Source: Candidatus Zixiibacteriota bacterium
Lineage (GTDB): Bacteria > Zixibacteria > MSB-5A5 > RBG-16-43-9
NCBI GenBank assembly: GCA_022865345.1
Contig: JALHSU010000194.1
Coordinates: 9,249-73,248 of the forward strand
Direction of reading: 5' to 3'
Length of the DNA: 64,000 bases
Made by a program: the position numbers and the translations under genes. The notes under the pieces are model-generated. The model was not told the origin of the DNA, did not search any database, and saw nothing but the letters and a program-made list of their open reading frames with translations. Shown piece by piece: positions 672-62,464 of the stretch; positions within the stretch are counted from its first letter, which is position 1, and the number at the start of each line of letters is the position of its first letter.

Positions 672-688
672 AACCTCTCCTTTTACTT

Positions 689-1246: not shown

Positions 1247-1845
1247 CTAAACTGGGATTTGAACTTTGCCCAGTCGGATTCTCCAGTCAGAAGCGGACGG
1301 TCAACCCAGGAGTAGATAATCCAGAAATCGTAGGCTGATTGCCGGAGATTGAAAGTCGAGCTCCCTTTAGCCACCCCGATAAGAGGTTCTGCCTTATCGT
1401 AATCATATAAGTAGATCAGGTAATCCCGGTAAAGGATTGCGCTGGTATCCCCTTTCACGTCCGGCTGGTCCGGATTTTTATCCAGGATAAGTACGTATCT
1501 TTTTGAGCTGGAGCTATACAGGTTAAATAGCCCGAAAGTGACGTTCCTTTCAACTGCCAGGTTCCAGTTCCAGAAACGCTCTGGCTGGTTTTGTCCAATC
1601 GCTTCTTGGGAATCCTCAGGCGCGGAGAAGACAAAGGAATCAGAAAAACACATAACGTAATTATCGATTATCTTTTCGGTATAAGCATTATAAAGGTTCT
1701 GGATAACCGTCTCCGGGGTAGTGGGAGGGTTCCAGGTTCCTCTGGGACCTGAAGGTGCGGCTGAGCTCCTGGTCTTAAAGGGATTCTTGCAGCCACAAAG
1801 GACCAGAGTCCCGATGAATATGACAAGGGCGATTTTCTTGACCAT
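1243..1845 (-). CDS. hypothetical lipoprotein, paralog of 689..1246 (lipobox LVLCGC, C-x-NPF)
   Basis: 200-aa ORF with a signal peptide and Cys lipobox. It overlaps the downstream paralog by 4 bp (ATGA), which suggests translational coupling within an operon. Confidence 0.6.
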   Translation of the reverse strand: MVKKIALVIFIGTLVLCGCKNPFKTRSSAAPSGPRGTWNPPTTPETVIQNLYNAYTEKIIDNYVMCFSDSFVFSAPEDSQEAIGQNQPERFWNWNLAVERNVTFGLFNLYSSSSKRYVLILDKNPDQPDVKGDTSAILYRDYLIYLYDYDKAEPLIGVAKGSSTFNLRQSAYDFWIIYSWVDRPLLTGESDWAKFKSQFR

Positions 1846-1848
1846 TTT

Positions 1849-4478: not shown

Positions 4479-5236
4479 TCTAATCTGAAGAGTTTTTTTG
4501 TATTCTGAGTGAAAATCTCATCTATCTCTTTAAAAGTATGTGAGTCAGAAAGCTGGACGACTTTTTCTATGACCAGCCTGACCAATTTAGGCTCATTTCT
4601 TTTACCCCGCATTGGCTCAGGAGTTAAATAAGGGCAATCAGTCTCAGTTAAAATCGAGCTTAGGGGGATTTTCTTCACCAGCTCGGCTGACCTGGAATTT
4701 TTATAGGTCAAGGTGCCGTTAAAGGAAAGACAAAAACCAAGATTAAGAGCATCTTTAGCCTCATTCTCATCCCCTGAGAAACAATGAAGAACCCCTTTCA
4801 ACCCTGCGGCGTCAGCTCTGAGAATATCTAGAGCTTTTTTATAGGCATTTCTGATATGGACGACGATCGGGAGTTTTAATTTCCTGGCCAAATCTATCTG
4901 CTCCTTAAAAGCCTTTATCTGCACATTCTCAGGAGAAAGATTTCTGTAAAAATCCAGCCCGATTTCACCTATTGCCACAACTTTTGGATGAGAAGCTATT
5001 TTTTCCAACTCTTTGAAAGCCTCACCGGTCAATTTAGACGCATCATGCGGATGGAACCCCACAGTGGCATAAATATTTTTGTACTTTTCAGCTAACCTTA
5101 TCGACTTTTCAGACGATTCTAAATCCACCCCGATATTGACAATCGACTCTAATCCGGAGGAAAAAGCATCTTCAATAACCTTATCTCTATCCTTATCATA
5201 CTGCGAAAAATCCAAGTGAGCATGGGTATCGATCAT
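4475..5236 (-). CDS. tatD: TatD-family metal-dependent hydrolase/DNase
   Basis: MIDTHAHLDF...GEIGLDFYRN...HCFSG motifs typical of TatD. Confidence 0.85.
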   Translation of the reverse strand: MIDTHAHLDFSQYDKDRDKVIEDAFSSGLESIVNIGVDLESSEKSIRLAEKYKNIYATVGFHPHDASKLTGEAFKELEKIASHPKVVAIGEIGLDFYRNLSPENVQIKAFKEQIDLARKLKLPIVVHIRNAYKKALDILRADAAGLKGVLHCFSGDENEAKDALNLGFCLSFNGTLTYKNSRSAELVKKIPLSSILTETDCPYLTPEPMRGKRNEPKLVRLVIEKVVQLSDSHTFKEIDEIFTQNTKKLFRLE

Positions 5237-5319
5237 AATATTCCCTTACAATTAAAGAATCATCCTTCTCTTTAATAATAAGCCTCCTAAAATTGAATGT
5301 CAATTCCTTTTAGTTGACT

Positions 5320-5437
5320 TGTATCACCCTCAAACAAGTTTGAGGGTGATACCCTATACGGGGCTGGGAGCCCCGCCTACGAGAGAAGGGATCTCTTTTT
5401 CCTTTCGTAGGTCGGGCACCCTTGCCCGACTTTTTTG
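5320..5437. repeat. array of four GC-rich hairpins, ending in a hairpin plus T-run (gtcgggcacccttgcccgac tttttt)
   Basis: tcaccctcaaac/gtttgagggtga (12-bp stem), ggggct-ggg-agcccc, cctacga...tcgtagg and gtcgggca/tgcccgac, all within an AT-rich intergenic stretch. Confidence 0.6.
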
Positions 5438-5445
5438 GAAAAAAA

Positions 5446-5489
5446 TGGAAGGCTAAAAAGTCTCAAGACCTTGAGAACTTCCGCTACAT
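5446..5489. repeat. short repeat family G, copy 1 (atggaaggc...tccgctacat), carrying an inserted gtctcaagaccttgagac hairpin
   Basis: Shares aaaaatggaaggct...tccgctacat with 43480-43506 and 61323-61350. The tctcaagaccttgag hairpin recurs at 54853. Confidence 0.5.
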
Positions 5490-5526
5490 AATAACGATCT
5501 TAAACCTGCCTAACCCTGTCATCAAG

Positions 5527-5558
5527 ACAAAAAAAGAGATGTTCTGCAGAACATCTCT
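5527..5558 (-). terminator. rho-independent terminator of metG
   Basis: Perfect hairpin agagatgttctg/cagaacatctct followed on the minus strand by TTTTTTTG, about 25 nt after the metG stop. Confidence 0.7.
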
Positions 5559-5583
5559 TTTAAAATCTCGATTTACCTGGGTC

Positions 5584-7542
5584 TTAACTTATCTTCGCCC
5601 CGGGTTTAACCTCTTTATCCACTGTTAATATGGTCAGATTTTCCCCGTCCTGAGCGGCAAGGAGCATCCCTTTTGATTCTATCCCTTTTATGCGAGCAGG
5701 TTTTAAATTGGCAAGAAGGATAATCTTCTTTCCGACCAGCTCCTCTGGCTTATAATATTCCGCAATTCCGGCGACTATTTCTCGATTTTCGTCCTCGAAT
5801 TCAACTTCAAGCTTTAAAAGCTTTTTTGCCCCTTCGACTTTTTCTGCTCCTATGACTTGAGCCACCCTTATATCCATTTTAGCGAAATCCTCAATAGTTA
5901 TTTCCATCTTCTCTTCTTTTGCAATTGAAACTTCAGATTTTTCTTTTGAGACCTCAGCCGGTTTTGCCTCTTTAAACCGAGGAAACAAGGGAACGATCTC
6001 CCGGATTTTCGTTCCGGGTTTTAAATAACCCCAGTCTTTTTCTCTTTCTAAATTCGGGATTATCTCATTTTGTGCTAACCCTAAAATCTCTCTTAACTTC
6101 TGACATTTCTCCGGCAGAGCAGGATAGAAAAGAAGACTGATAATCCTCAAGGTTTCTGCTGAGGCATAAAGAACCGTTCCCAATCGGGTTTTATCCTTTT
6201 CCTTGGCTAAATTCCAGGGAGCGGTCTTGTCCACATAGCGGTTGGTGAAGCGGACTAACTTCAGGACCTCATCAAGAGCCTGGTTGAGATTCAGCTCCTC
6301 GATTGAGTCAAAAACCACCTCGACTGTCTTCAGGGCTGAATTTTGCAGCTCCTTTTCATCCACAGAGTAATCCGAAGGCTTTGGAATCTCTCCGCGAAAA
6401 TGCTCCTTGATCAGCTTCAAAACCCGGCTGGCTAAATTGCCAAAATCGTTTGCTAAATCAGAATTATATTTCTCCTCTAATCTTTTCTCCTGAATGTCTC
6501 CATCCTGTCCGAAGGGAAAATGAGTCAAAAGGAGATAGCGGGTAGCATCACTGCCATACCTTTCTATCAGATAATAAGGGTCGATCACGTTGCCTAGAGA
6601 CTTCCCCATTTTTTGACCATTCACCGTGAAAAAACCGTGGATGAAAAGTATGTCTGGTGTTTTTTCTCCGAGCGCAATCAGCATCGCAGGCCAGTAGATG
6701 TTGTGGAATTTCAAAATGTCTTTACCTAAAAGATGTATAACTTTCCCCTCGGTCCACCATTTCTTGAATTCATCAGGATTATCCCCGTAACCGATAGCTG
6801 AAATATAATTTGGCAGAGCATCCACCCAGACATAGGTCTTCTGAGTAGTGTCGAAGGGCAAAGTTATCCCCCAGGTAACCTTTTCTCTCGAAATCGAAAA
6901 ATCCTCTAACTCCTGCTTGAAAAGCCCCAGGGTCTCTTTTTTCTTCTCCTCTGGCAAAATCCTTATTTTATCTTCTGTGATTAGTTTTTCGACCTGTGAC
7001 AGGTATGAGGAGAGCCTGAAAAAGTAGTTTTTCTCAGTTACCTTTTGCGGAGGTTTCAGATGATTGGGGCAAAGTCCGTTTACTAAATCTTTTTCGGTGA
7101 TGAATTTCTCGCAGCCCACGCAGTATAATCCAGTATATTCTCCAGGGTAAACTATCTTTTGACCTTTTTCATCTTTTGCTTGGTAAAGTATGTCCAGAAG
7201 TTTTTCAACTGCCTGAACGTGCCTTTCATCAGTGGTCCGCACGAAATAATCGAAGGATATATTCAGCTTTTCCCAGACCTCCTTGAAGCGTTGGCTATTT
7301 CTATCGCAAAACTCCTGCGGAGAGATTCCCGCCTGCTCGGCTGCCTCTGCTACCTTGCTGCCGTGCTCATCTGTTCCGGTCAAAAAGAAGGTCTCGTCCC
7401 CTTTGATGCGATGAAATCTGGTAAGGATATCAACCGCAACAGTGGGATAGGCGTGTCCGATATGCGGTTTATCGTTCACATAATATATGGGAGTGGTAAT
7501 AAAATATCTTCCTTTTTTGATCTGAGGCTTTAAGCCAGCCAA
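5584..7542 (-). CDS. metG: methionine--tRNA ligase with C-terminal tRNA-binding (EMAP/Trbp111-like) domain
   Basis: HIGH-type motif (PHIGHAY), KMSKS-type motif (KMGKSLGN) and a Zn-knuckle CxxC...CPNH. The C-terminal domain is of the ...GAEKVEGAKKLLKLEVEF... type. Confidence 0.92.
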   Translation of the reverse strand: MAGLKPQIKKGRYFITTPIYYVNDKPHIGHAYPTVAVDILTRFHRIKGDETFFLTGTDEHGSKVAEAAEQAGISPQEFCDRNSQRFKEVWEKLNISFDYFVRTTDERHVQAVEKLLDILYQAKDEKGQKIVYPGEYTGLYCVGCEKFITEKDLVNGLCPNHLKPPQKVTEKNYFFRLSSYLSQVEKLITEDKIRILPEEKKKETLGLFKQELEDFSISREKVTWGITLPFDTTQKTYVWVDALPNYISAIGYGDNPDEFKKWWTEGKVIHLLGKDILKFHNIYWPAMLIALGEKTPDILFIHGFFTVNGQKMGKSLGNVIDPYYLIERYGSDATRYLLLTHFPFGQDGDIQEKRLEEKYNSDLANDFGNLASRVLKLIKEHFRGEIPKPSDYSVDEKELQNSALKTVEVVFDSIEELNLNQALDEVLKLVRFTNRYVDKTAPWNLAKEKDKTRLGTVLYASAETLRIISLLFYPALPEKCQKLREILGLAQNEIIPNLEREKDWGYLKPGTKIREIVPLFPRFKEAKPAEVSKEKSEVSIAKEEKMEITIEDFAKMDIRVAQVIGAEKVEGAKKLLKLEVEFEDENREIVAGIAEYYKPEELVGKKIILLANLKPARIKGIESKGMLLAAQDGENLTILTVDKEVKPGAKIS

Positions 7543-14037: not shown

Positions 14038-14200
14038 TCTGGAATTGGTGTTCCCGAATCAATCCTGCTCAGCCAAGTACGGGAATTCCGATTCCCGCAC
14101 GAACAAGAAGAACTGAAAAACTATTTTGTGAGCAAGATAGATGTTGCGTTTTTTTGGTAAATTACATATAATTATCATAACCACTACTAAAGGAGTAACG

Positions 14201-15082
14201 ATGAAAGCATTTTTAAACCATAGCCTTAGACTATGGATAATAGTGCCTTTGGCAATTACACTACTTTTCTTCACGCTCGTCACCCCTTTCGCAAAGACCC
14301 TGTACCAAGATGGAACCTTTAGTACTACGTTATTAACGGCGTCTTCGATCAAAAATGCCTCAGGTGGATCTCTGAAAAACCTCCAAGTAAAGGGTACTAC
14401 AGGTATAAATCTTATCTCCTTTATACCGATCCAATATCAAAGTATGAACGGTACAAGTGAAGAGTATTATACTGAAGAATACTATTTAGGAAAGCTGGCA
14501 CGTTGGCAAAATTCTTTCAGAATTCGTCAAGGTATCTTATCGTTTCTAATTGGCACTACTTTGGCAGCATACGGAATTTATGGACTCACAAAAAAGAATA
14601 ACGACGGTGTATTATTGACAGCCAGTGGCATATCCATTGATGTTTTAGGATTATATTTAATCTATGGAAAAAGCCGGGCTCAGAAGTCTTATGAGAAGGC
14701 TTGGCAAATGGAAGATGAAGCAGAGAAACATAACTTAACTTTAGAGACCTTGCACTTTTATGCTCGGAATTATAGAGCATTTAGGATAGGCTCTGCAATT
14801 TTGTGTACAGCAGGCGGAATTTGGGTCCTCAAACAGCCAGACCCAGAGGAATGTGAGCCCTGGAATTACGCTCTTGGACCGAATCCCTGTGATCTATTGA
14901 ACCCTGAGGAACAGAAAACTGCAAAAACGATGAGCACAGTTGCTCTCTTCTCTTCAGCCATCTTTCTCTTGGTTTGGAAGAGTCCCCCTGAGAAACTTTA
15001 TAAGAAATATCGAGGTTTGCATCAGAATCTTGGTCTGGATAGAAAAGGGGATGTAATCTTATTCTTTTCCTATTATTTCTGA
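14201..15082 (+). CDS. hypothetical integral membrane protein (AT-rich islet gene)
   Basis: Strong SD aaaggag 7 nt before ATG 14201 (the track ORF starts earlier at 14141). There are several hydrophobic helices. It is one of the few plus-strand genes, has lower GC than its neighbours, and is bracketed by the duplicated rho 3' end. Confidence 0.55.
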   Translation: MKAFLNHSLRLWIIVPLAITLLFFTLVTPFAKTLYQDGTFSTTLLTASSIKNASGGSLKNLQVKGTTGINLISFIPIQYQSMNGTSEEYYTEEYYLGKLARWQNSFRIRQGILSFLIGTTLAAYGIYGLTKKNNDGVLLTASGISIDVLGLYLIYGKSRAQKSYEKAWQMEDEAEKHNLTLETLHFYARNYRAFRIGSAILCTAGGIWVLKQPDPEECEPWNYALGPNPCDLLNPEEQKTAKTMSTVALFSSAIFLLVWKSPPEKLYKKYRGLHQNLGLDRKGDVILFFSYYF

Positions 15083-17041: not shown

Positions 17042-17539
17042 TTAATCTTTTAGTTTAAAAATCTTCTGATAATCCTGACCCAGGATCAGGGTATAGCCTA
17101 TGTTCAGATAATTGTTTTCCAGCTGCCGGGTGAGGATGTTTTTCTTCTTCAGACCGATTTTTTCACCGATCAGCAGGGCGGTTTTCTCCTCTCCCATCCT
17201 ATCCAGAAGAAGACTTTCCTTGACCAGGGAATCCGGCAAGTCTTTCTGTTCAACTATAACCAGATAATAGGGGCTGAAATTTTTTTTCTCCAGGAACTGG
17301 GCAAAACCAGGACTGATTCTTTTGCCTGAGGAGTTCAGCACTTGCACTCGCAAAGGATTCGTTCTCAGACTCCCCTCTGCTTGAGTCTGGGTTAACCTTT
17401 TGGCTGAAGAGAGAACAAATAATATTATCAATAAACCCAAAAAGGCTATACCCAGATCCACAAACCTTCCCCCCCGTTTTGCTTTGGACCTCTTGCGGTA
17501 AAAACGATACCTTTTATCCGCGCCTTTTCGCTTGAACAT
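17042..17539 (-). CDS. membrane-anchored protein with LytR/CpsA/Psr C-terminal (LytR_C)-like domain
   Basis: Basic N-terminus, one TM, then ...PLRVQVLNSSGKRISPGFAQFLEK...DLPDSLV..., which resembles LytR_C domains. Confidence 0.4.
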   Translation of the reverse strand: MFKRKGADKRYRFYRKRSKAKRGGRFVDLGIAFLGLLIILFVLSSAKRLTQTQAEGSLRTNPLRVQVLNSSGKRISPGFAQFLEKKNFSPYYLVIVEQKDLPDSLVKESLLLDRMGEEKTALLIGEKIGLKKKNILTRQLENNYLNIGYTLILGQDYQKIFKLKD

Positions 17540-43506: not shown

Positions 43507-43589
43507 TAGATTGTAGGAGCAATTCATGAATTGCCCCTACAGGATACTAAGAATTTTGGCTAATACTTATGTAAAGCTGAAACCTTTTC

Positions 43590-46500
43590 TCAGCAAGGTG
43601 GTGGTCCGCCTTTAAAAAGATAGTTAACTAAATACACTACATCGGAAACAGTTACTTTCCCATCGCAATTAGCGTCTCCGGACTGAATTGGAATAGGGGT
43701 TTGACCCCCTTTGAACAGATAATTTACCAGATAAACCGCATCCGATACAGTTACTTTGTGATCACCGTTAGCATCACCGCACGTGTACTCATATTGATAA
43801 TCATATTCATACACACCCATATCCACTCTGCAACCTCTTATTCTGGGTTTAAAGTCAAAATCAAAATCGGGTAAACCTGAAATATATTTGTCTCCTGCAT
43901 TAACGCAAGGGGAGTTTTCCTGCAAGTGGTAATCAGTGTCCGGATTGACAAACATAGGATTCCTGATAATGTTGTGATAACTGTCGCAAGGGATTCCATT
44001 GACATTAGTTCCCCAGGTGGTATCTCCAATTTCGGGAGGAGGATATCCCTCAGCATCAAAATTACCATCAGCATTGTTCCAAACATCATTATGTGAAATA
44101 CCATAGTAAGAAGAACAGTTCATGAAACTCATCCCGTGACCATCGTTGTTAACGATAATGTTGTTGCTAACATTATGAGTACAAACATTCCATATAAGCA
44201 TTCCATCAGATCCATTGTTTGAGATGGTGTTATTAACAATTCTAGGGCTACCGCCGCTTTCTATGCATATTCCACCACCACCGTCATCGCAACTATTTAG
44301 AATAATCAAGTTATTCACAATTAAGGGGCTTGATGTTCCCCTGCAAGACATACCACCTCCCAGTTCCCACATCCCTCCCGGCTCGCTAGGGATGTGATTG
44401 TTAATAATCAAATTGTTCATTATTGTAGGTGATGAAGAAAAGCAATAAATGCCTCCACCATGGCGTTGCCACCTTCCCAGATAAAAGTTAGTTCCTGTGC
44501 CGCCAGTGATGGTGAATCCTATTAAAATAGATATAGAATCCTCGCCTGAAACAAAAGTTACCACACTGCCTGAATCGGGATTAATAGGTTCACTTCCATC
44601 AATTATAGTTGCTTCAATAGTGGCAGAGTTATGGTCATAGATAAAATGGCTTGCTACAGTTATAGCTTTGCCCCGGAAATTTATATTCTCATAATAAGTT
44701 CCAGGCGCAACCAAAACCGTATCTCCATTCGAAGCAGAATCAATACCTTCTTGAATTGTTTGAAAATCAACCGGAATCCGGATAACATGCGGGCTAGGGG
44801 TAAATGGCTCCAACCGGAAAAGCTTCCCTTCACCAGGACCCAGATAGACTGTAAACATGTCACCTATTCCATTTACCATACCAACTTTCGTGTTGAGGTA
44901 CATATCTCTGATATAGAATGGACCACCTGCTTTGCTTAAAAAGACATCGTAATTTGCTCCTTCGGTTGCCAAGCATTCACGGTTAACCAGCATAAAGTAG
45001 CTGGTATCGCCGGTTTGATTCTCAAAGAATCCGACCTGCACCCAATGGGGTTCATGCCCAGGTGACCTGATGCTGTCGAGGTAACTGCCACCGCAGCCAT
45101 GGAGGTCATTGTTGTTGTAGGAACTGTCTAAGCAGGCATCAATCCAGTCGAGGCTCCGCAGCGTTGTGCCGAGGGAATCAAGCCAGAAATTAATCTGGAC
45201 AACCTCAGTTAGCAAAGTCTCTGGTTGGCTCGAATAAGGATTTGGACCGGGGTAGGTCTCAATAGGCACCCAATCCTGCACATCTTCGTTCCACCATAGC
45301 AATCCACTTTGCCAAGCCGGATTTTGGGGGGTCCATTGTGGGTGACTTGAGTACCGAAAGTACTCCATTCCTTTGGCACCATAAGCCAAGGATAAGTAAA
45401 CGGTGGTCCTTAGCTCGCTGTTGTGCGAATATCTCCACCAATAGGGGTCCCTGAGAGTTTGGGCCACATACCACCATTCGATATTATGTTCGCGTGCGGC
45501 TTCAGCCGCTTGTCGGATGCGCCAGGTAAACAGATTTAGCAGGTACTGAAGAGATTCTGGAACAACCCAGGTAGCTATAGGGTAATCATCATAACATATT
45601 TCATGTGGTTGTACCTCATCCGCAAACTTTTTAGGATGATGCCAGGCTGCATCTCCTGTTGCTTGAATTCCCGGAACATAGTTGAGTGAATCAAGTAGAT
45701 GGCTTATCTCTCTGTTGGTTTTGTAATGCACATAGGCGGGTTCGTCACGCAAGTACCATCGAAATAAAGATGTTCCATGATATTGATTTTCCAACGTTGA
45801 TACTTGTGCAATAATCCTATCTTGATAGGTTGGACTGTGATTCATTAAGGTATCGTAAATGCAATCATAAACTTCGACATAATCTATGAAGAGATCAGTA
45901 TTCTTAAACCAGTGAACTCTGTAATCGACCGAATCATTTCCATAAGGGATTTGGTTGTGGAATGACAGTTCAAATATCCGGTATTGCCCCAGAGTGAAAT
46001 CCCCGTAGAGAAGTAGGGAATCCGCCACTACGCTATCTCTTACCGCGTTCATATAATGAACCTCAATACGTGCAACTGAGTCCAAAGGTTGAGCACCAGG
46101 TGTTACAGGAACCTTAAGGTTAAAGCGGGCATAGTATATTAGTTCATAATAACATCCCCACCAGCTATTTGAGCAGAGCATCTCTCTGCTATAATCAACG
46201 ATGCAACATGTGTCACGGATTCTGTCACAGTCGGGTTGTTCATGCCAGAGTCCCCACAATACCAACCCACCATTATGGGTTACGCTGTCCTTAGATTCGA
46301 ACCATGCGTATCCGTTGCCAGCGTCTGGGTCTTGCACCTGATTGCCATATCCGTTGTGATCCAAACGAGTACTGAGAAAGCGGATTTGATCTCCTGGATA
46401 AGGTTGATAGTAATCTCTGAGATTATGTCTGTCGGCTTCATACTTACTGTACAGTCCATTTCCCGGCTGCAAGTAGATGTAGTCTATCAAGTTAAGAGTA

Positions 46501-46697
46501 TCGACCGAAGCTGAATCATAATCTGCATAAGTAAATCCCCAGGGAAGGGAATGAGCGCAATTAAAACCGTGACTTTTTGTTTTATCGAAATAGGGATAAG
46601 ACCTAAAATCTGGTGTGTGGAGAGGACCGTAGACACCACGATGAAAATTCGGTTCAAAGGCCACTACTGAGGTAAAGAAGAAACCGAGAAAGAGCAA
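43590..46697 (-). CDS. large secreted protein: N-terminal glycoside-hydrolase-like region, parallel beta-helix (PbH1) repeats, C-terminal type-I dockerin pair
   Basis: C-terminus GDANGDHKVTVSDAVYLVNYLF ... GDANCDGKVTVSDVVYLVNYLF has the two Ca-binding dockerin repeats. There are N-N-x-I-x-N-N beta-helix turns. The track start is a TTG. A probable true start, ATG 46739 with SD AGGAG, is separated from this frame by an in-frame TGA at codon 8. Confidence 0.7.
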   Translation of the reverse strand: MLFLGFFFTSVVAFEPNFHRGVYGPLHTPDFRSYPYFDKTKSHGFNCAHSLPWGFTYADYDSASVDTLNLIDYIYLQPGNGLYSKYEADRHNLRDYYQPYPGDQIRFLSTRLDHNGYGNQVQDPDAGNGYAWFESKDSVTHNGGLVLWGLWHEQPDCDRIRDTCCIVDYSREMLCSNSWWGCYYELIYYARFNLKVPVTPGAQPLDSVARIEVHYMNAVRDSVVADSLLLYGDFTLGQYRIFELSFHNQIPYGNDSVDYRVHWFKNTDLFIDYVEVYDCIYDTLMNHSPTYQDRIIAQVSTLENQYHGTSLFRWYLRDEPAYVHYKTNREISHLLDSLNYVPGIQATGDAAWHHPKKFADEVQPHEICYDDYPIATWVVPESLQYLLNLFTWRIRQAAEAAREHNIEWWYVAQTLRDPYWWRYSHNSELRTTVYLSLAYGAKGMEYFRYSSHPQWTPQNPAWQSGLLWWNEDVQDWVPIETYPGPNPYSSQPETLLTEVVQINFWLDSLGTTLRSLDWIDACLDSSYNNNDLHGCGGSYLDSIRSPGHEPHWVQVGFFENQTGDTSYFMLVNRECLATEGANYDVFLSKAGGPFYIRDMYLNTKVGMVNGIGDMFTVYLGPGEGKLFRLEPFTPSPHVIRIPVDFQTIQEGIDSASNGDTVLVAPGTYYENINFRGKAITVASHFIYDHNSATIEATIIDGSEPINPDSGSVVTFVSGEDSISILIGFTITGGTGTNFYLGRWQRHGGGIYCFSSSPTIMNNLIINNHIPSEPGGMWELGGGMSCRGTSSPLIVNNLIILNSCDDGGGGICIESGGSPRIVNNTISNNGSDGMLIWNVCTHNVSNNIIVNNDGHGMSFMNCSSYYGISHNDVWNNADGNFDAEGYPPPEIGDTTWGTNVNGIPCDSYHNIIRNPMFVNPDTDYHLQENSPCVNAGDKYISGLPDFDFDFKPRIRGCRVDMGVYEYDYQYEYTCGDANGDHKVTVSDAVYLVNYLFKGGQTPIPIQSGDANCDGKVTVSDVVYLVNYLFKGGPPPC

Positions 46698-46983
46698 AAG
46701 AAACCAAAAGACAGCTCACGAAACCTTGAATGTGCTCATTTTAGCATCTCCTATTTTGACTTATATTTTCAGTAAAATAAATATTATACAAAAAGTCTTA
46801 TGACCTTTACAAGAGGTTAAACAATTCCTTGGCTATTTTTGCCTCCTTTAAAAGTTTAGGAGATAATAGCTAATCATCACTTTTTCAGCCTAAAGCTATT
46901 TCAATTTAGAATTTCAGAATGGTAAAAGTCAAGGAAAAATATTTGAAAAAAGCTAATGGCGGATGACGAAAAAAAAATAGTTT

Positions 46984-47098
46984 TGTCATTGCGAGGTAGG
47001 CACCAAAGTGGTACATACCGAGGAGTCCATCTGACCGACGAAGCAATTCTTAAAGGGTTAACAGATTGCTTCGCCTCCATATGGGACTCGCAATGACA
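46984..47098. repeat. MITE-like element bounded by a 12-bp perfect IR tgtcattgcgag / ctcgcaatgaca, with a nested IR gaagcaat...attgcttc
   Basis: Read directly. 115 bp. Confidence 0.6.
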
Positions 47099-47123
47099 TC
47101 ATTAATTTTTTTATTTAAAATCC

Positions 47124-47153
47124 TTGACAAACCCTGTTTGGATTTTTTAAAAT
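47124..47153 (+). promoter_or_regulatory. sigma70-like promoter TTGACA-N18-TAAAAT for the Mut7-C gene (near-leaderless)
   Basis: -35 at 47124-47129 and -10 at 47148-47153. The ATG is at 47165 with no obvious SD. Confidence 0.5.
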
Positions 47154-47164
47154 AGACTCATATT

Positions 47165-47626
47165 ATGAAATTCATCTGCGATGACAATCTAGGGAAGTTA
47201 GCCAAATGGTTGAGAACCCTGGGGTATGACACCCTTTTCAGCCAGGAGATAGAGGACACCGAGTTAGTTTCAACGGCTTTAAAGGAAGAAAGGATAATCC
47301 TGAGCCGGGACCAGCAGCTTAAACGGTTCAAATCCGCAGAGAAGAATCTTTTCCTCCTCTCTTTGAACCAGCCCCTGGAGCAGTTGAAAGAAGTTCTGAA
47401 AAAGTTCAACCTTAAACCTGAGGAAAAAAATCATTTTACCCGCTGCATTATGTGCAATACCGTATTGGTTCCGGTTCCTAAAAAAGAAGTAGAGAATAAA
47501 GTCCCGCCCTTTGTCTTCAAGACCCAGGAGAAATTCTTTTATTGTTCTAAATGCAATAAGCTCTTTTGGGCAGGAACGCATGTAAAGAATTTGAAGAAGG
47601 AAATAAGCGAACAGGGTATGCTGTAG
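47165..47626 (+). CDS. Mut7-C (DUF82) PIN-like RNase domain protein with C-terminal zinc ribbon
   Basis: N-terminal MKFICDDNLGKLAKWLR...ILSRD matches Mut7-C. C-terminal CIMCN...CSKCNKLFW is a CxxC...CxxC ribbon. Confidence 0.7.
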   Translation: MKFICDDNLGKLAKWLRTLGYDTLFSQEIEDTELVSTALKEERIILSRDQQLKRFKSAEKNLFLLSLNQPLEQLKEVLKKFNLKPEEKNHFTRCIMCNTVLVPVPKKEVENKVPPFVFKTQEKFFYCSKCNKLFWAGTHVKNLKKEISEQGML

Positions 47627-47692
47627 TTGCTCGATTCATCGAGCTTTTTTTATGTTGCGCCTGGCACTTGCCTGATAAATCAGGCAACTACA
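47623..47692. repeat. TIR-family T element, copy 3 (tgtagttgc ... gcaactaca); the Mut7-C stop codon TAG lies inside the left TIR
   Basis: Perfect 9-bp IR. Inner hairpins are gctcgat-tc-atcgagc and gcctgat-aa-atcaggc (a different sequence, same structure as cccaat-aa-attggg in copies 1 and 2). Confidence 0.65.
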
Positions 47693-47727
47693 GTCTCTTG
47701 TCTTGACCTACACTTTTGAGAATGGTA

Positions 47728-47750
47728 AAACAGACATTCCTGTCTGTTCC
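47728..47750. repeat. hairpin family H, copy 2 (aacagACattccTGTctgtt)
   Basis: See 43438-43459. Confidence 0.6.
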
Positions 47751-47778
47751 TGTAGATAAGTGAGACGATTTCAGGTTG

Positions 47779-47864
47779 CGAACTCACCCTGAATCCCTCT
47801 CTTAGAAAGAGAGGGACTAAAGCTCCCCTTCTCTTCCTAAGAGAAGGGTCAGAGGATGAGTTCG
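47779..47864. repeat. Correia-like element P, copy 4 (inverted orientation)
   Basis: cgaactcaccctgaatccc ... ggatgagttcg. Hairpins are ccctctctt-aga-aagagaggg and ccccttctctt-cct-aagagaaggg. It lies between the convergent Mut7-C and GH57 genes. Confidence 0.7.
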
Positions 47865-47983
47865 AGCAAGAACTACTTTCCCCCCCATTCTCCTGTTGGG
47901 TCAGACAAAAATGTCTGACCCACCAATCACCCTCGCCTTACCCCTCCAGTCGAGGAAGGCAATTTGTCCGATGAATCGGGCGA

Positions 47984-50155
47984 CTATCCGAATGGATCCA
48001 TCCTAGACAGAATATCGATTTTTTTGATTATCCTTGCCTGCCAAACCTCTGCGGGATTTAACCTGATTTTCCAGTTCGGAAACAAGACCGTGCTCTGATA
48101 AGTTTTTTCAAAGCCGGATTCAGATAAGGAGACAGTATATAGGGGGAATTGCCAGATACTTGCGGGTTTATCCAGCTTCAGGTCTATCTGGAGACCCAAA
48201 GCTTCATCCCTTATGCCAAAATCCGTGATATTCTCATCTTCTGTCTTTAGATTGAGTTTTCTGTCTTTTTGCTCCAGGCCTTTGACGTAAAAAGTCTTCC
48301 TCCCGTCGTCCGATGATAGCATCCCGAAGTTAAACTCCATCCCAAACCATAACTCCACAACTTCTGAATGATTATTCCTCAATTCATAATTAATCTCAAG
48401 CTCTTTGCTATTACCTTTGAGGGTGATTCTTTTTGTCACACCGATACTTGCCCTCTCATCGTCCACCCACACAAAACCGTTCCGGGAAAGGATTAATTCA
48501 AGAGAACCTTCTTTTTTATTAATCTCATATTCATAAGGCTGATTGATAAAGTCCCCTTGTTCTGGATACTGACACCTGGCGAAATCATCTAAACTCGCAT
48601 TTTTTCCCAGGAAATGGTCGATAAAAGAACCTTTTCTGTACCAGTCATAGGTCAGAAGCTTTTCTAAGCCTTCCTCCTTGACTCCCAGCAGATCGTGAAT
48701 GCTGGCGAATTTTTCAGTCGGGTTGATCTCAGTATTTTTTATCTCGGAGATCTTTCGGTGATACCCTTCCTCGTGTCTGGACAGAATGTTCAAGAGATTA
48801 AAATCCTTAGGTTTGAAATCCAGCTCATACAAGGTTCCGCCAATAAAGGGTGAAAAGTACAAATTGAAAATTGGAGACTCAATTATGACTTCCTCTTTGC
48901 CATCCTTGTCGAAGTCGGTAACCTCATATTCTATCCAGTTCTCGTCTTGATGACACAGTTGATCAGCAAGCTTATCTGCTTTGATCAGATGCTCATAGAT
49001 CGGCTTCCTGAGATTAGAAAGGTATAATCCACCAAAAACCCCGTGCCAGTAAGGGTCATTGCACTGGCTTTTCCAGCACTCATCTCTGATCATGTTAATT
49101 TTATCTCTATCAACATCAGACAAATCCTCCAGCTCTTTGATCTTCTGACTTAAATAGAGCATCCGTTTGTGCATATGATTGGATTCTGGATATTTTGCCA
49201 GGAAATTCCTCCAGAACCCTCCCCGCACGAAAATACCGTATTTATCAAAAAGGTCTTGCTCTTTAAGGACCTTCTCGAAATCCTCAAACTCCTGAAAGGC
49301 TTTGGGCAGAAGCGCCCAGTGCATCATCTCGTAATATGACGCGGTGGGGAGATAGATTCTGCCTAAAGGGGATAGTTCCTTTAAAACCTGGCTGAAATGG
49401 ACCATCTCGATCCAGTCTGAATTCTCTTTTATCTTTTCGAAAAATCTCTCCAGCCACCTGTCCTCGTAACAGTGCTCATAAGTCATGGGCCAGATCCCGA
49501 ATTTCTCACCATCATCTGCATAGACTACCAGTTTATCCCCATCCTCTGTAGCCAGACTTTTGAGATAGTCGATGATCTCTTCTGGCTCTTTGAAAGGAAT
49601 ATAATATCTCAGCTTCTTGCTTATGGGAAATAGAGCCAGGGTAAAGCCTCCCTCCTCAGTTAAATAGTAACCCAAGAGTTTCTCATCCTCTAAACCAGAA
49701 TACTTGAAGTGTGAATCATCCAGGAGCGCAAAATCGACCCCGGCTTTGGCAAAAAATTTCGGCAGGTGAGGCTCCCAAACCCTTTCTGCCACCCACATCC
49801 CTGAGGGTTCGAAGTAGAAATTTTGCCGGATGAAAGAGCTCAGCTTTTCGATCTGACCGGTCTTATCCTCATCCGGGATAGAAGGAAAGATCGGCTCGTA
49901 ATATCCTCCGGTCAAAAGCTCTACCTGTCTGCTTTTCACCAGGATCTTTAGTTTTTCGATTAGTTCCGGATGATTTTTTAGAAACCAGTCGTAAAGTATT
50001 CCGCAGTTGTGTAAGGAGAGCTTGAAGAAGGGGTACTTCTCTAAAAGCCCCAAGAAGGGAGCATAACATCTCTGAAAGGCTTTCTCGAATATATGCTCAA
50101 AATTCCCGATCGGCTGGTGATTGTGAATCCCGAAGGCAAATTTTATTTTCTTCAA
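47984..50155 (-). CDS. glycoside hydrolase family 57 protein (4-alpha-glucanotransferase/alpha-amylase type)
   Basis: GH57 N-terminal signature ...FAFGIHNHQPIGNFEHIFEKA...HNCGILYDW... 723 aa. Confidence 0.75.
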   Translation of the reverse strand: MKKIKFAFGIHNHQPIGNFEHIFEKAFQRCYAPFLGLLEKYPFFKLSLHNCGILYDWFLKNHPELIEKLKILVKSRQVELLTGGYYEPIFPSIPDEDKTGQIEKLSSFIRQNFYFEPSGMWVAERVWEPHLPKFFAKAGVDFALLDDSHFKYSGLEDEKLLGYYLTEEGGFTLALFPISKKLRYYIPFKEPEEIIDYLKSLATEDGDKLVVYADDGEKFGIWPMTYEHCYEDRWLERFFEKIKENSDWIEMVHFSQVLKELSPLGRIYLPTASYYEMMHWALLPKAFQEFEDFEKVLKEQDLFDKYGIFVRGGFWRNFLAKYPESNHMHKRMLYLSQKIKELEDLSDVDRDKINMIRDECWKSQCNDPYWHGVFGGLYLSNLRKPIYEHLIKADKLADQLCHQDENWIEYEVTDFDKDGKEEVIIESPIFNLYFSPFIGGTLYELDFKPKDFNLLNILSRHEEGYHRKISEIKNTEINPTEKFASIHDLLGVKEEGLEKLLTYDWYRKGSFIDHFLGKNASLDDFARCQYPEQGDFINQPYEYEINKKEGSLELILSRNGFVWVDDERASIGVTKRITLKGNSKELEINYELRNNHSEVVELWFGMEFNFGMLSSDDGRKTFYVKGLEQKDRKLNLKTEDENITDFGIRDEALGLQIDLKLDKPASIWQFPLYTVSLSESGFEKTYQSTVLFPNWKIRLNPAEVWQARIIKKIDILSRMDPFG

Positions 50156-57888: not shown

Positions 57889-58725
57889 TCAAGCCTCCTT
57901 GAGCCACGTTCTTCTATGTTCGTCTATCAGTTTCACCTGAAACAAAAGCTGCTCTAATCTATCCAAAGGAAGCATGCTCCCCTTATCGCAGAGCGCTTCC
58001 TCAACCCGCGGATGAGTCTCAATAAACAAAGCATCACAACCGCAGGCAACTGCAGCCCGGGCTAAAGGGAAGATAAACTGAGGCTCACCTGAGGAAAAAG
58101 TTTTTCCTCCACCTGGTAATTGCAGAGAATGAGTAGCATCAAAAACCACCGGATAACCAAGATTGCTCATAATCACCAGTGAACGAAAATCTACCACTAA
58201 GTCATGGTAGCCAAAGAAACTTCCCCTTTCTGTCAATAGAATCTGGTCATTTCCCACTGACTCAGCTTTTTTGGCAATCTGGTCCATATCCTCAGGCGCC
58301 ATAAACTGTCCCTTTTTGATGTTCAGGGCTTTTCCGGTTTTAGCCGCAGATAAGATCAGGTCTGTCTGCCTGCATAAAAACGCCGGTATCTGCAATACGT
58401 CTGCAACCTCAGAGACTGGGGAAGCCTCATCCGGGGAATGAATATCTGTCAAAATCGGGACATCCAGTTCTTTTTTTACCTTTTCCAAAATCCTTAAACC
58501 TTCTTTCATACCCGGTCCAGAATATGATTCTATGCTCAGGCGATTAGCTTTTTTGTAGGAGGATTTGAAGATGAATGGGAACTTCAGTTTATCGGTGACC
58601 TTTTTTATCTTCTGAGCTGTTTCCAGAACTAGAGTTTCAGACTCTATTACACAGGGACCGGCAATTAAGACTAAATGAGAGCCCTGACCTATAGGGATAT
58701 CTTTGATCTTTACGGTTTTTTTCAT
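57889..58725 (-). CDS. kdsA: 2-dehydro-3-deoxyphosphooctonate aldolase (KDO8P synthase)
   Basis: ...LVLIAGPCVIESE... and ...DATHSLQLPGG... are KdsA signatures. Confidence 0.9.
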   Translation of the reverse strand: MKKTVKIKDIPIGQGSHLVLIAGPCVIESETLVLETAQKIKKVTDKLKFPFIFKSSYKKANRLSIESYSGPGMKEGLRILEKVKKELDVPILTDIHSPDEASPVSEVADVLQIPAFLCRQTDLILSAAKTGKALNIKKGQFMAPEDMDQIAKKAESVGNDQILLTERGSFFGYHDLVVDFRSLVIMSNLGYPVVFDATHSLQLPGGGKTFSSGEPQFIFPLARAAVACGCDALFIETHPRVEEALCDKGSMLPLDRLEQLLFQVKLIDEHRRTWLKEA

Positions 58726-58740
58726 AATGCAAAGGTTTCC

Positions 58741-60408
58741 TCACATTTTGGTCAGAGGTTCTTTTTCCCCTACCATTTTCAAATCTCTGGAGTTTTTATA
58801 TCTTAAGGAAGCCTTCACGAAATCGCGGAAGAGCGGGTGTGCTTTCAAGGGTCTGGATTTCAGCTCCGGGTGGAACTGCACTCCAACAAACCAGGGATGG
58901 TCTTCGATCTCGATTATCTCCACCAGGCTTTTATCTGGCGAGGTCCCGGCTATTCTCATTCCGGCCTTGCATAAGACCTCTTTGAAACGGTTGTTGAACT
59001 CATACCGGTGCCGGTGTCTTTCGCTGATCTTCTCCTCTTCATACGCTTTGAAGGAAAAACTGCTTTTATCCAGATTACAGGGATAAGCCCCCAGTCGCAT
59101 AGTTGCCCCTTTGTCCACTACCTTCTCCTGCTCGGCAAGTAAGCTGATGACCGGATATTCAGTATGTCGGTCGAACTCGGTGCTGTTTGCACCTTTCATA
59201 TTGCAGACATTTCTGGCAAACTCGATCACCGCACACTGCATCCCCAGGCAGATTCCAAAAAACGGGATTTTATTTTCTCTGATAAACCTCACTGCCTCTA
59301 TTTTACCTTCTATTCCCCTTTCACCAAAACCGCCTGGAATCAAAACCCCATCTATATCCTTAAGATATTTTCCCGCACCATCTTTTTCCATATCCTCAGA
59401 GGAAATCCAGGAAAGTTCTACCCTAGCTTCATTTTCCTCCCCTGCATGAATGAAAGCTTCGATTATGCTTTTGTAGGAGTCCTTTAAATTGGTATATTTG
59501 CCGCAGATTCCTATCTTGACCTGATGTTTTGGATATTTGATCCTCTGCACCATCTTTTCCCACTTGGTCAGATCCGGCTTCTCGCAGGCTAAATCCAGAT
59601 GCCTGCACACTAAATCATCCAGACCCTGCTGGTGGAAAATCAAGGGTATCTCGTAGATCGATTCCACGTCAATGGCCTCGATCACCGCATGGCTGGGCAC
59701 GTTGCAGAAAAGCCCTATCTTGTCTTTTATCTGTTTAGACAAGGGCCTGGAGGTCCGGCATAAGAGGATATCCGGCTGGATCCCGATCTCCCTTAATTCC
59801 TTGACGCTGTGCTGGGTAGGCTTGGTCTTGACCTCTCCTGCGGACTCGACATAAGGGACCAGGGTCAGATGGATGTAAAGCGTGTTGCTGTGACCGTTTT
59901 CAAGACCCATCTGCCTGATCGACTCCAAAAAAGGAAGTCCTTCGATATCTCCGACTGTCCCTCCGATCTCGGTGATAACCACGTCCACGTCCCCGTTTTT
60001 CTCTGCTACTTTTCTTGCCCTTCTTTTAATCTCGTCTGTTATGTGCGGAACCACCTGAACTGTCGCCCCTAAGTAATCTCCTCTCCTTTCTCTGGAGATA
60101 ACCTCGCCATAAACCTGGCCTGTGGTGACGTTGCTGTCCTTGGTCAGGCTTTCATCCAAAAATCTTTCGTAATGGCCCAAATCTAAATCAGTCTCTGATC
60201 CGTCATCCAAGACGAAGACCTCTCCATGCTGAAAAGGATTCATCGTGCCCGGGTCGACATTCAGATACGGATCGAATTTCTGCAGGGTGACTTTAAGCCC
60301 TCTTTTTTTCAGAAGAAGACTCAAGGAGGAACAGGCAACCCCTTTACCCAGGGAGGAGACCACACCGCCAGTTATGAAGATATATTTTGGCATTTTCTTT
60401 TGAGTCAA
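58741..60408 (-). CDS. pyrG: CTP synthase
   Basis: N-terminal synthetase domain ([16 protein letters not shown]) and a C-terminal glutamine amidotransferase with GICLGMQ. Confidence 0.95.
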
Positions 60409-61411: not shown

Positions 61412-62464
61412 TTAATGGGTTTTTTCTCTGTTTTTTAAAAACTTAATTCTTGCTTTCTCTAAGATCTCTTCAATGGTCTGTTTTGGTTTCCTTCTTTCTT
61501 CATCAAAATATTTCAGGAGCTTTGGGTTCTGCTCAACCTTCTTTGCCTCATCAGTAGGTAAATAAGCAAGTGCCAATTTCATTACTTTTGAATAAAAGGG
61601 ACCCTTTCCAATAAAATAAGGGACCTTTTCCCATTTTCCATTTTTAAATTCCCAAGTATAACGAATTGAGCCCTCTACATCATCTGCTGGCTGAATTTCA
61701 TACTCACCAACGCTAAATAATAAAGATTTATTAAATTGTTTAAGGCTAACCTTTGACCAAGGATATAATATTGTAAGTGAATAATCTGGATTAATCAAAT
61801 ATGTATTAGGGGCATTTATCTCAAAGTCTCCAGTTAGATTAAAAATATTTACAGTTTGGTTACTTCCAAATGATTCATAATCTTTTATTTTATTCAAAAT
61901 AGACAAGCCACCTACATAATTTTCTGGCTCTTTGAAAAGTCTATCATCGTAATCAAAAATAAAATATTTTTCAATTTGGTATCTCTTTGATGTACTTGTA
62001 TGAGAGTATGCGACATTCCACTTTGAAATTATTCTTGGCTCATATTTCACCCTTAATTTTTCAAAAGCCAAAAGTTGATGCTTTACTTGTTCTAATTCAA
62101 TCTCATCATTTTTCTTTAGATCCCACATACGAGTGCGTGACCCGTTATATACAACGTAATTATAATGTGGAACATCTTCGCCTTCAAATACTTCATCATC
62201 ATGAATCATAAATATTTTCTCTTGGGCCCATATGTCTTTACAGTTTACTAAACCAATATTCTTTATAACAAATTTGTATTTATTCTCCCCTGCAAAATAT
62301 CTATAGAAACATTCGATCTCTGGCTTTAACTGTTCTTTATAATGATTTAACTGTGATTTATAATTACAATATTGAAAGATATTACCGATAACCGATACCA
62401 CTAGCGTGACTAGAGGGACATAGAGTAATAACTTTACCTTGTTCTTCTTATTTTCATCTTCCAT
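61412..62464 (-). CDS. hypothetical membrane-anchored protein (AT-rich ORFan)
   Basis: 350 aa with one N-terminal TM (LLLYVPLVTLVVSVIGNIF). GC is visibly lower than flanking kdsB and ridA. No family recognised. Confidence 0.5.
   Translation of the reverse strand: MEDENKKNKVKLLLYVPLVTLVVSVIGNIFQYCNYKSQLNHYKEQLKPEIECFYRYFAGENKYKFVIKNIGLVNCKDIWAQEKIFMIHDDEVFEGEDVPHYNYVVYNGSRTRMWDLKKNDEIELEQVKHQLLAFEKLRVKYEPRIISKWNVAYSHTSTSKRYQIEKYFIFDYDDRLFKEPENYVGGLSILNKIKDYESFGSNQTVNIFNLTGDFEINAPNTYLINPDYSLTILYPWSKVSLKQFNKSLLFSVGEYEIQPADDVEGSIRYTWEFKNGKWEKVPYFIGKGPFYSKVMKLALAYLPTDEAKKVEQNPKLLKYFDEERRKPKQTIEEILEKARIKFLKNREKTH

Follow-up and report, generated by a model that had tools for sequence, protein, structure and literature searches.

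An in-frame TGA at codon 8 of a dockerin-bearing Zixibacteria gene is probably a recent nonsense mutation in its signal peptide

A gene for a secreted, dockerin-bearing protein on the minus strand of the window (the whole 64-kb stretch of DNA that was analysed) carries a premature in-frame TGA at the eighth codon of its ancestral reading frame, where four orthologues have a sense codon. With a probability of about 0.6, we attribute this TGA to a genuine recent nonsense substitution, by which Leu-8 (TTA or TTG) became TGA and a young loss-of-function or strongly hypomorphic allele arose. The gene is probably newly broken or weakly expressed, and as far as the DNA tells this is ordinary gene decay and not a new coding rule. 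The initial annotation had left four options for the TGA: a nonsense mutation or pseudogenisation, reinitiation at a downstream TTG, a sequencing or assembly error, and programmed read-through. A real nonsense mutation, with or without restart at the TTG, remains; an artefact is very unlikely, and programmed recoding finds no support.

The reading frame of ~1035 aa was recovered as described, with exactly 1035 codons from a TTG that both NCBI and JGI use as the start, and the features claimed for its 5′ end were all found by direct reading. An in-frame ATG (46739-46737) lies 42 nt 5′ of the TTG and is preceded by a good Shine-Dalgarno (SD) sequence, AGGAG (46752-46748), with a spacer of 8 nt. 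The frame opened by this ATG, ATG AGC ACA TTC AAG GTT TCG TGA, stops at codon 8 (46718-46716) and translates as MSTFKVS*AVFWFLLLFLGFFFTSVVAFE, the remnant MSTFKVS reading today as a 7-codon mini-ORF. Upstream of the TTG, no SD-like motif was found. Many gene starts in the window are without such a motif, so that SD-less initiation appears normal here. A sigma-70-like site ~45 nt 5′ of the ATG is treated as a candidate promoter and no more, since shuffled versions of the region are expected to contain no fewer such sites. No riboswitch or leader RNA turned up in Rfam, where the sole match, to ALIL, scored 14 bits and missed the threshold of 50.

The four orthologues (the proteins P0002, P0004 and P0005 and the L010 ORF) all start at the homologous ATG/SD and continue without interruption, and over the ATG, the SD sequence and all codons of the signal peptide their DNA can be aligned with the window base by base. 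Their N-termini read MSKFKFWL, MSRFKFWL, MTKFKFRL and MTKFKTWL, against MSTFKVS* here. Codon 8 is Leu in each of them (CTG, TTA, TTG and TTG), and from the TTA of L010 a single transversion yields TGA. Protein P0003, considered as a second orthologue with a damaged N-terminus, was rejected as a mis-called start, the L010 ORF being intact from ATG 2596. The orthologue comparison, which the initial annotation had proposed as the test that could refute it, gave four of four starts at the ATG equivalent and none at the TTG equivalent, which is an internal Leu or Met codon. The match exceeds chance, and on the alignment the upstream ATG/SD is the ancestral start. The earlier interpretation thus stands as to an ancestral start and a TGA that interrupts a textbook signal peptide; its list of options has been narrowed, and the GH-like character of the protein holds only at the level of the fold.

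Within the remaining 3105 nt no second stop or other lesion was found, and the gene body shows no extra stops or frameshifts of the kind expected from further decay. Because of the missing second stop, the nonsense mutation is regarded as recent: under the assumption of neutrality, these 3105 nt limit the neutral divergence since inactivation to less than ~2% (95%), compared with a dS of 0.74 to the nearest orthologue. The long-term dN/dS is 0.08-0.17.

According to the reading that we prefer, ribosomes would still load at the conserved AGGAG-ATG and stop after seven codons, and the 1035-codon body would be made only at low level. It could be reached by termination-reinitiation at the SD-less TTG, 18 nt 3′ of the TGA, which would yield a product that keeps the 13-residue hydrophobic core and the VVA/FE site and loses the basic n-region, or by rare near-cognate read-through of the UGA. 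The rest of the ORF would be intact because there was too little time for further decay. From this arrangement we infer that expression is low, that translation restarts at the TTG and that the truncated signal is still competent for export. An intact body with all conserved family residues would be equally expected of a gene still under selection, and a fully functional restart allele is compatible with the same data.

Table 1. Features of the dockerin gene, its surroundings and the TGA-terminated reference genes (positions in the window)
Feature	Position	Strand	Remarks
Dockerin gene ORF	43590..46697	minus	1035 aa, TTG start
Ancestral 5′ remnant, ATG + six sense codons (MSTFKVS), then TGA	46716..46739	minus	read directly
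In-frame TGA nonsense codon at conserved-Leu position	46716..46718	minus	same in window, ENA contig L001 and JGI contig L007
Shine-Dalgarno AGGAG, 8 nt 5′ of ancestral ATG	46748..46752	minus	direct reading; GGAG invariant vs orthologues
Sigma-70-like promoter candidate TTGTAA-18-TATAAT	46783..46812	minus	consensus scan, 10/12 matches
TTG, annotated start and sole plausible restart codon	46695..46697	minus	18 nt 3′ of TGA
Residual signal peptide MLFLGFFFTSVVA, predicted cleavage VVA/FE	46659..46697	minus	13 residues
N-terminal module, GH42/GH164-like (beta/alpha)8 barrel, unclassified family	44778..46652	minus	~625 aa
Right-handed parallel beta-helix, residues 746-877	44067..44462	minus	Pfam Beta_helix, PF13229, E 6.5e-14, 52.3 bits vs cutoff 25.9
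Choice-of-anchor Q domain, residues 923-966	43800..43931	minus	NCBIfam NF041518, 26.6 bits vs cutoff 25
Type I dockerin pair, residues 974-1027	43617..43778	minus	Pfam Dockerin_1, PF00404, E 1.3e-9, 38.5 bits vs cutoff 22.9
Normal TGA stop of the gene	43590..43592	minus	
13-bp hairpin 3′ of gene, terminator-like, without clear T-run	43512..43541	minus	
4.8-kb tract 100% identical to ENA contig L001	43508..48316	.	L001 flanks ~9% divergent
ksgA/RrnaAD	3645-4478		ends in TGA, expected length
uvrA	31219-34050		ends in TGA, expected length
KdsA (kdsA)	57889-58725		ends in TGA, expected length
CTP synthase (pyrG)	58741-60408		ends in TGA, expected length

It is possible, though on balance doubtful, that the gene still works from a new start. 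In that case the nonsense mutation would be real, initiation at TTG 46697, by termination-reinitiation or in an S1-type SD-independent manner, would give enough protein, and the gene would be under purifying selection. The shortened signal (MLFLGFFFTSVVA/FE) would still be exported and cleaved, and the 7-codon remnant would act as a ribosome-loading mini-ORF. The gap of 18 nt between TGA and TTG falls within a reinitiation range of roughly 20 nt, and in one E. coli gene pair reinitiation was still efficient over 15 nt (PMC10666635). In E. coli and Haloferax, however, reinitiation was down by 40-80% at +14 nt and nearly abolished at ~20 nt, the latter in most tested pairs (PMC10666635). Given these losses and the missing SD before the TTG, itself a weak start codon, restart is expected to be inefficient, although SD-less initiation is common in the window.

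The signal peptide bears on both sides of this question. The TTG-initiated product, LFLGFFFTSVVA, has the hydrophobic h-region and the small residues at -3 and -1 (V-V-A/FE) of a Sec-type signal, the cleavage site being assigned by the -3/-1 rule. The residual signal has a mean Kyte-Doolittle hydropathy of 2.23, and no Lys or Arg precedes its h-region, whereas the signal peptides of the orthologues have 27 residues with 2-3 Lys/Arg. A basic n-region raises export efficiency, the essential part of a signal peptide being the hydrophobic core (PMC9360617). With ~20 residues the ancestral h-region was exceptionally long, so that even after truncation a core of normal length would be left. A functional gene is further favoured by its 1035 intact codons with every family-conserved residue kept, by an allele common to two lineages and, as a weak signal, by codons 1-7, which seem more changed than in the orthologues (K3T, F6V and W7S), as would fit relaxed constraint on a stretch now outside the protein. 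On the other side, the TTG equivalent is an ordinary internal Leu/Met codon in the orthologues, and the three available copies have no within-gene variation from which selection could be measured.

The 4.8-kb tract that is identical in the ENA contig covers the 3′ end of a GH57 gene, a Mut7-C gene, the intergenic region and the whole dockerin gene with its TGA, and provides evidence for a recent recombination between related lineages. As this tract is common to two lineages ~9% apart in the flanks, the TGA allele does not seem to have been strongly counter-selected, which weighs against our preferred reading. We consider it unlikely that the allele is maintained rather than dead, with the 7-codon loading mini-ORF and the TTG restart deliberately lowering or re-routing the output of a surface enzyme and the tract having swept two lineages. 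If true, this would be a gene-specific sweep in which recombination spread a down-tuned or null allele for a glycan-active protein of the cell surface, on a 4.8-kb tract that moved through two Zixibacteria lineages ~9% divergent elsewhere.

The TGA is identical in the window (an NCBI MAG), the ENA contig (MEGAHIT k141) and the JGI contig. Two SNPs in 4562 positions separate the JGI contig from the window, and the ENA contig differs by its flanks plus a 7-nt indel; the three differently produced assemblies amount to at least three distinct consensus sequences. On this agreement the TGA is taken to be a genuine codon of the genome, and the error option of the initial annotation, with a true Leu at codon 8, has become very unlikely. 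Errors do occur now and then in MAG consensus sequences, and the assemblies, which probably come from one sampling project, may even share reads. However, the same TGA stands in a contig with ~9% divergent flanks, the site is not in a homopolymer, and the 64-kb window showed no other gene that looked broken. As a check of assembly quality, in-frame adjacent ORF pairs in the window were found to resemble tightly packed separate genes, not split ones. The probable single sampling project also implies a small population breadth, a point against our own reading as well. A collection of 5.8 billion proteins yielded no close relative whose codon 8 is intact, the cluster there consisting of TTG-called copies only; a degenerate DNA pattern run on metagenome contigs matched nothing beyond the JGI contig already known and the P0005 locus, and the search of the genome collection for an intact allele gave no match.

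It is hardly credible that the TGA is decoded, by selenocysteine insertion, efficient programmed read-through or a reassigned code, with a 1049-aa precursor as the normal product. Among bacterial stop codons UGA is the leakiest, and this one is in frame with a perfectly conserved start. The earlier statement that TGA is a genuine stop elsewhere in this DNA (ksgA, uvrA) was nevertheless confirmed: TGA terminates 17 of the 41 long ORFs, among them the housekeeping genes listed in Table 1 at their normal lengths, which excludes code tables 4 and 25 and leaves a genetic code that reads as standard. Folding of the region 3′ of the TGA was no better than that of shuffled sequences (z = 0.67), so no SECIS-like hairpin was detected there, nor was any above-threshold Rfam match, and the 64-kb window has no tRNA or tRNA-Sec. 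Selenocysteine is also at odds with codon 8 of the orthologues, which is Leu and not Cys, Sec or Trp, and none of the four has a stop there, as a conserved recoding site would. Frameshifting offers no rescue, since direct reading shows stops within ~20 codons in both the +1 and the -1 frame. Finally, the idea that the ATG/SD is a coincidence and that the gene always began at the TTG, as in the NCBI and JGI annotation, is refuted by the alignment: the four orthologues have N-termini homologous to the ATG, the SD and the 14 codons upstream of the TTG, and in them the TTG equivalent is internal.

The gene product would be a secreted modular Zixibacteria protein with a GH42-like barrel, a beta-helix, a choice-of-anchor Q domain and a dockerin pair. 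Its PbH1 beta-helix and type I dockerin pair, both recognised in the initial annotation, score above the Pfam cutoffs (Table 1), and the two DxNxDxxxxxxD loops of the dockerin, DANGDHKVTVSD and DANCDGKVTVSD, are visible in the translation. The GH-like N-terminus is borne out at the fold level, with a GH42-type domain arrangement around a (beta/alpha)8 barrel, one beta-sandwich inserted in the barrel and another at its C-terminal side; catalysis is unproven, the GH42 nucleophile being absent from the family. D303-E304-P305 is nearly invariant at the putative place of the GH42 acid/base residue after beta4. At the end of beta7, where the GH42 nucleophile Glu lies in M-E-Q, the family motif 'fwliAQ' aligns with 'FWVMEQ' of 6lvw, and position 397 is A, I, P or V in 14, 14, 14 and 12 of 61 sequences and never Glu. 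The conserved D303, E304, P305, Q398, R407 and E413 are all kept in the TGA-bearing gene. Neither the query nor 10 distant relatives had a Pfam or NCBIfam match over residues 1-640. The related family comprises ~240 clusters in Zixibacteria and Ignavibacteria (FCB group), and of the six loci that a genome search with 8 family sequences gave, two were from Zixibacteria and four from Ignavibacteria MAGs. Compared with GH42 beta-galactosidases and the GH164 beta-mannosidase (clan GH-A TIM barrels), the family lacks the nucleophile Glu, and it differs from GH42 further by Asp instead of Asn before the acid/base residue (DE, not NE), by the inserted beta-sandwich and by having no match to the Pfam GH42 model. 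This unclassified GH42/GH164-like family is a candidate new CAZy family.

The initial annotation had deduced from the dockerin that cohesin partners should exist. This step is not compelling, since dockerin-like modules are also known from organisms without a cellulosome (Peer et al. 2009, as cited in PMC6487960) and, across the homologues, a T9SS sorting domain can take the place of the dockerin pair. Like type I dockerin enzymes of Clostridia cellulosomes, the protein has a C-terminal duplicated Ca-binding motif above the Pfam threshold. Unlike these, it belongs to a diderm Zixibacteria host with LPS genes in the window, its dockerin directly follows a choice-of-anchor Q domain, the dockerin of its homologues is interchangeable with a T9SS C-terminal sorting domain, and a search of the 49 ORFs of at least 150 aa in the 64-kb window gave no cohesin. 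Such features speak for a general anchoring module and against a cellulosome. A literature search combining Zixibacteria and dockerin gave no match.

For annotation, the case shows how such a lesion stays hidden in pipelines: in both NCBI and JGI the gene is called from an RBS-less TTG as a 1035-aa protein that looks intact, and the damage to the export signal was exposed by comparison with orthologues. Biologically, it would be nothing unusual: in an environmental population, one accessory secreted protein would recently have been lost or attenuated. Worth more than the lesion itself are two by-products, the 4.8-kb recombination tract and the GH42/GH164-like family, with its kept D-E pair, lost canonical nucleophile and interchangeable anchors (dockerin or T9SS).

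Rescue of early nonsense mutants by restart is familiar from lacI and from the T4 rIIB restart mutants. An early nonsense codon rescued in this way is also described for an E. coli phoA mutant series (Karamyshev et al. 2004, as cited in PMC10666635). As in these mutants, a stop a few codons into the gene is followed a few codons later by a near-cognate TTG, and the upstream SD/ATG is retained and would still load ribosomes. The present allele differs in being a natural one of an uncultured bacterium, with a restart predicted from sequence, in a restart product that must function with a truncated signal peptide, and in an SD-less gap of 18 nt, which is close to the limit for E. coli (PMC10666635). 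With young single-nonsense pseudogenes it shares the one lesion relative to intact orthologues, the otherwise whole ORF and the housekeeping neighbours; unlike these, its lesion lies so far 5′ that a near-complete protein could still form, and the allele sits on an identical 4.8-kb tract in two lineages.

Read directly on the minus strand, the 5' end of the dockerin gene runs AGGAG-atgctaaa-ATG AGC ACA TTC AAG GTT TCG TGA GCT GTC TTT TGG TTT CTT TTG CTC..., and translation through the TGA from the upstream ATG gives MSTFKVS, the stop and then AVFWFLLLFLGFFFTSVVAFEPNFHRGVY. Reading and translation bear out the ATG, SD, codon-8 TGA and TTG described in the initial annotation, the TTG lying 42 nt past the ATG and 18 nt past the TGA. 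The protein is identical to GenBank MCJ7459279.1 from a candidate division Zixibacteria MAG, and four orthologues show 62-78% identity to it. These begin with MSKFKFWLSFFWLVLLFFCFFFTTAVAFE (P0002), MTKFKFRLLVVWLLMQLLCLFFTSAVAFE (P0004, past a mis-extended start), MTKFKTWLFCVWLLLVFICFFFAPAVAFE (P0005) and MSRFKFWLLRLWLLLVFFSFFFTSAVAFE (the intact ORF of contig L010, GCA_036396115.1, whose database protein P0003 has a start mis-called 135 codons too far downstream). In the DNA alignment the GGAG, the spacer, the ATG and the codons after it are homologous, and codons 7-8 read TGG CTG, CGG TTG, TGG TTG and TGG TTA in the orthologues versus TCG TGA in the window; TTA to TGA is one transversion. The equivalent of the TTG is a start in none of the orthologues, all of which have a Leu or Met codon inside the gene there, and the earlier reading of the upstream ATG stands. 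P0005 is a positional orthologue with the same neighbours (HPr kinase, MlaD, GH57 and the divergent Mut7-C gene). It follows from this homology and positional orthology that the upstream ATG is the ancestral start and that the TGA stands in place of a conserved leucine.

Coordinates of features in the window and of domains in the dockerin protein
Feature	Position	Strand	Remark
KsgA/RrnaAD	3645-4478		TGA-ended; Pfam domain fills ORF, normal length
Unannotated ORF	14141-15082	+	one of four plus-strand ORFs
Protein of 975 aa with Ser/Thr protein kinase domain and long TPR array	27807-30734	-	adjoins uvrA
UvrA	31219-34050		TGA-ended; Pfam domain fills ORF, normal length
FadL/TodX-type outer-membrane transporter and esterase	34614-37433	+	two of four plus-strand ORFs
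TTG start of 1035-aa ORF	46697-46695	-	ORF calling, NCBI and JGI all begin here
In-frame TGA, codon 8 from upstream ATG	46718-46716	-	read directly
Upstream in-frame ATG of dockerin gene	46739-46737	-	read directly
Mut7-C gene	47165-47626	+	one of four plus-strand ORFs
KdsA	57889-58725		TGA-ended; Pfam domain fills ORF, normal length
CTP synthase	58741-60408		TGA-ended; Pfam domain fills ORF, normal length
Beta_helix	residues 746-877		Pfam
Choice-of-anchor Q domain	residues 923-966		NCBIfam; just before dockerin
Dockerin_1	residues 974-1027		Pfam

Ribosomes starting at the strong AGGAG-ATG would terminate after seven codons. Apart from a GTG inside the cleavage motif, no start codon but the TTG lies between the TGA and the cleavage region of the signal peptide, and no SD-like motif was found for the TTG. 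UGA can be read through by tRNA-Trp, which would open a second, low-level route to the gene body. In native gene pairs of E. coli and Haloferax, termination-reinitiation is down by 40-80% at +14 nt and nearly abolished at about 20 nt, with one native pair still reinitiating efficiently at 15 nt (PMC10666635); idling post-termination ribosomes reinitiate in a phoA mutant series (Karamyshev et al. 2004, as cited in PMC10666635). Given these distance data, the 18-nt gap and the lack of an SD-like motif, restart at the TTG is possible and would be expected to be inefficient. The predicted restart product begins MLFLGFFFTSVVA/FE, and its signal keeps a very hydrophobic segment of 13 residues (mean Kyte-Doolittle 2.23) and a valid -3/-1 site, with no Lys or Arg versus two to three in the 27-residue orthologue signals. 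Since the hydrophobic core of signal peptides is essential and a basic N-terminus raises translocation efficiency (PMC9360617), reduced rather than abolished export of this product is plausible.

The gene body carries no second lesion, and the absence of another stop in its 3105 nt, where 4.8% of possible single substitutions would create one, limits neutral divergence since inactivation to less than about 2% at 95%. The closest orthologue lies at a synonymous distance of 0.74, and dN/dS over the long term is 0.08-0.17. Within the gene no differences separate the three copies with the TGA, which therefore give no measure of recent selection. A young null or strongly hypomorphic allele is our preferred reading (probability about 0.6), ahead of a fully functional restart allele, which we consider unlikely. 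The TGA is best explained as a nonsense substitution that arose recently in the signal-peptide region and is possibly leaky through restart. As such it is a useful annotation caveat with an ordinary mechanism and no new biological principle. Of more interest are two by-products, the GH42-like family that lacks a nucleophile and a tract of 4.8 kb that is identical between lineages.

The same TGA is found in the ENA contig ERZ27247989:k141_1281857 (L001) and in the JGI contig Ga0315294_10047817, the latter with 2 differences from the window in 4562 positions. Since three distinct consensus sequences from different assemblers concur, a sequencing or assembly artefact is very improbable and we take the TGA to be genuine. 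Independence between sampling sites is limited, as the samples are probably from one project: the P0005 locus is found under sibling JGI identifiers, and ENA and JGI contigs agree in length. The protein collection yielded no close relative whose codon 8 is intact, the 90% cluster consisting of two TTG-called copies only. Compared over its positions 1-6386, L001 is 100% identical to window 43508-48316 except for one intergenic 7-nt indel about 220 nt upstream of the ATG (window ~46958, L001 2013-2020; CGTCATCCGCCATCCGACATTAGC in L001, CGTCATCCGCCATTAGC in the window). This 4.8-kb tract runs from the dockerin gene, contained whole with its TGA, through the intergenic region and the Mut7-C gene into the 3' end of GH57. 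Its flanks, in GH57 and inositol monophosphatase, are about 9% divergent (58/655 and 79/915 positions), with most differences in the third base of codons. Related Zixibacteria lineages appear to have recombined here recently; a doubly chimeric contig would be a less likely origin of the tract.

Long ORFs in the window end in TGA more often than in either other stop codon (17/41), and TGA closes housekeeping genes of normal length, among them ksgA and uvrA, for which it had rightly been called a genuine stop; the organism therefore uses the standard genetic code. Programmed recoding of the TGA, selenocysteine included, is very unlikely and is rejected, as is frameshifting, because the surrounding 121 nt of RNA fold no better than shuffled sequence does (z = 0.67), an Rfam search at the site gave nothing above noise, codon 8 is Leu, not Cys, in the orthologues and a stop in 0/4 of them, and the +1 and -1 frames both reach stops in about 20 codons. 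No tRNA genes lie within the 64-kb window.

The window is densely coding, almost all on the minus strand: the bias is extreme, with 45 of the 49 ORFs of at least 150 aa on that strand, and the GC skew of the plus strand is negative across the whole window (1-64000 for both). LPS genes (LptC, lipid A acyltransferase, KdsA and a KdsD-like protein) indicate that the organism is a diderm. Pfam gives no match at or below E 1e-6 for five sizeable ORFs, of which one has 599 aa (1849-3648, 689-1845, 14141-15082, 17042-17539 and 61412-62464).

At the C-terminus, Pfam recovers the beta-helix and type-I dockerin pair of the initial annotation, the latter canonical in sequence. Family members end in beta-helix plus dockerin, FG-GAP plus dockerin, dockerin alone, beta-helix plus T9SS Por_Secre_tail or FN3 plus T9SS tail. 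P0004, P0005, P0007, P0008, P0013, P0036 and P0046 all carry this protein's N-terminal module, then no further module, a beta-helix, FG-GAP or FN3, and finally a dockerin pair or Por_Secre_tail. In these FCB-group bacteria the dockerin appears to take the place of a C-terminal sorting/anchoring domain. Upstream of the orthologue in the Zixibacteria MAG of L010, positions 1-2518 encode another large protein, with a faint dockerin match, and an SBBP-repeat secreted protein; dockerin-type proteins may be clustered there. No cohesin is encoded among the 49 ORFs of at least 150 aa in the window. Dockerin-like modules occur in organisms without a cellulosome (Peer et al. 2009, as cited in PMC6487960). 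The dockerin pair does not imply a cellulosome and could plausibly serve in surface anchoring.

The N-terminal 625 aa are matched by no Pfam or NCBIfam model, distant relatives included, and define a family of 243 representative clusters (E 1e-3 or better), with six loci in species-representative genomes (two Zixibacteria and four Ignavibacteria MAGs). The AlphaFold model, from 61 sequences, is confident (pLDDT 88.8, pTM 0.89), and its Foldseek matches are chiefly TIM-barrel glycosidases, with a few weaker ones to CBM and Cry-toxin beta-sandwich domains. The 'GH-like' label thus holds for the fold and not for membership of GH42, to which the family profile has a weak match (5xb7, E 1.1e-5). 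Following beta4, at the place of the N-E acid/base of GH42, stands a nearly invariant D303-E304-P305. HMMER aligns the family's 'fwliAQ' with 'FWVMEQ' of 6lvw and with 'FLMAQS' of 4uoq, which we take to be a nucleophile E-to-A mutant. None of the 61 sequences has Glu at position 397, where Ala, Ile, Pro or Val occurs, and 55 conserve Q398; the GH42 nucleophile, a defining feature, is absent. Substrate-assisted families of the hexosaminidase type, such as GH20 and GH123, are marked by a D-E pair and the lack of an enzyme nucleophile, and by analogy we hypothesize that this family may be of that type.
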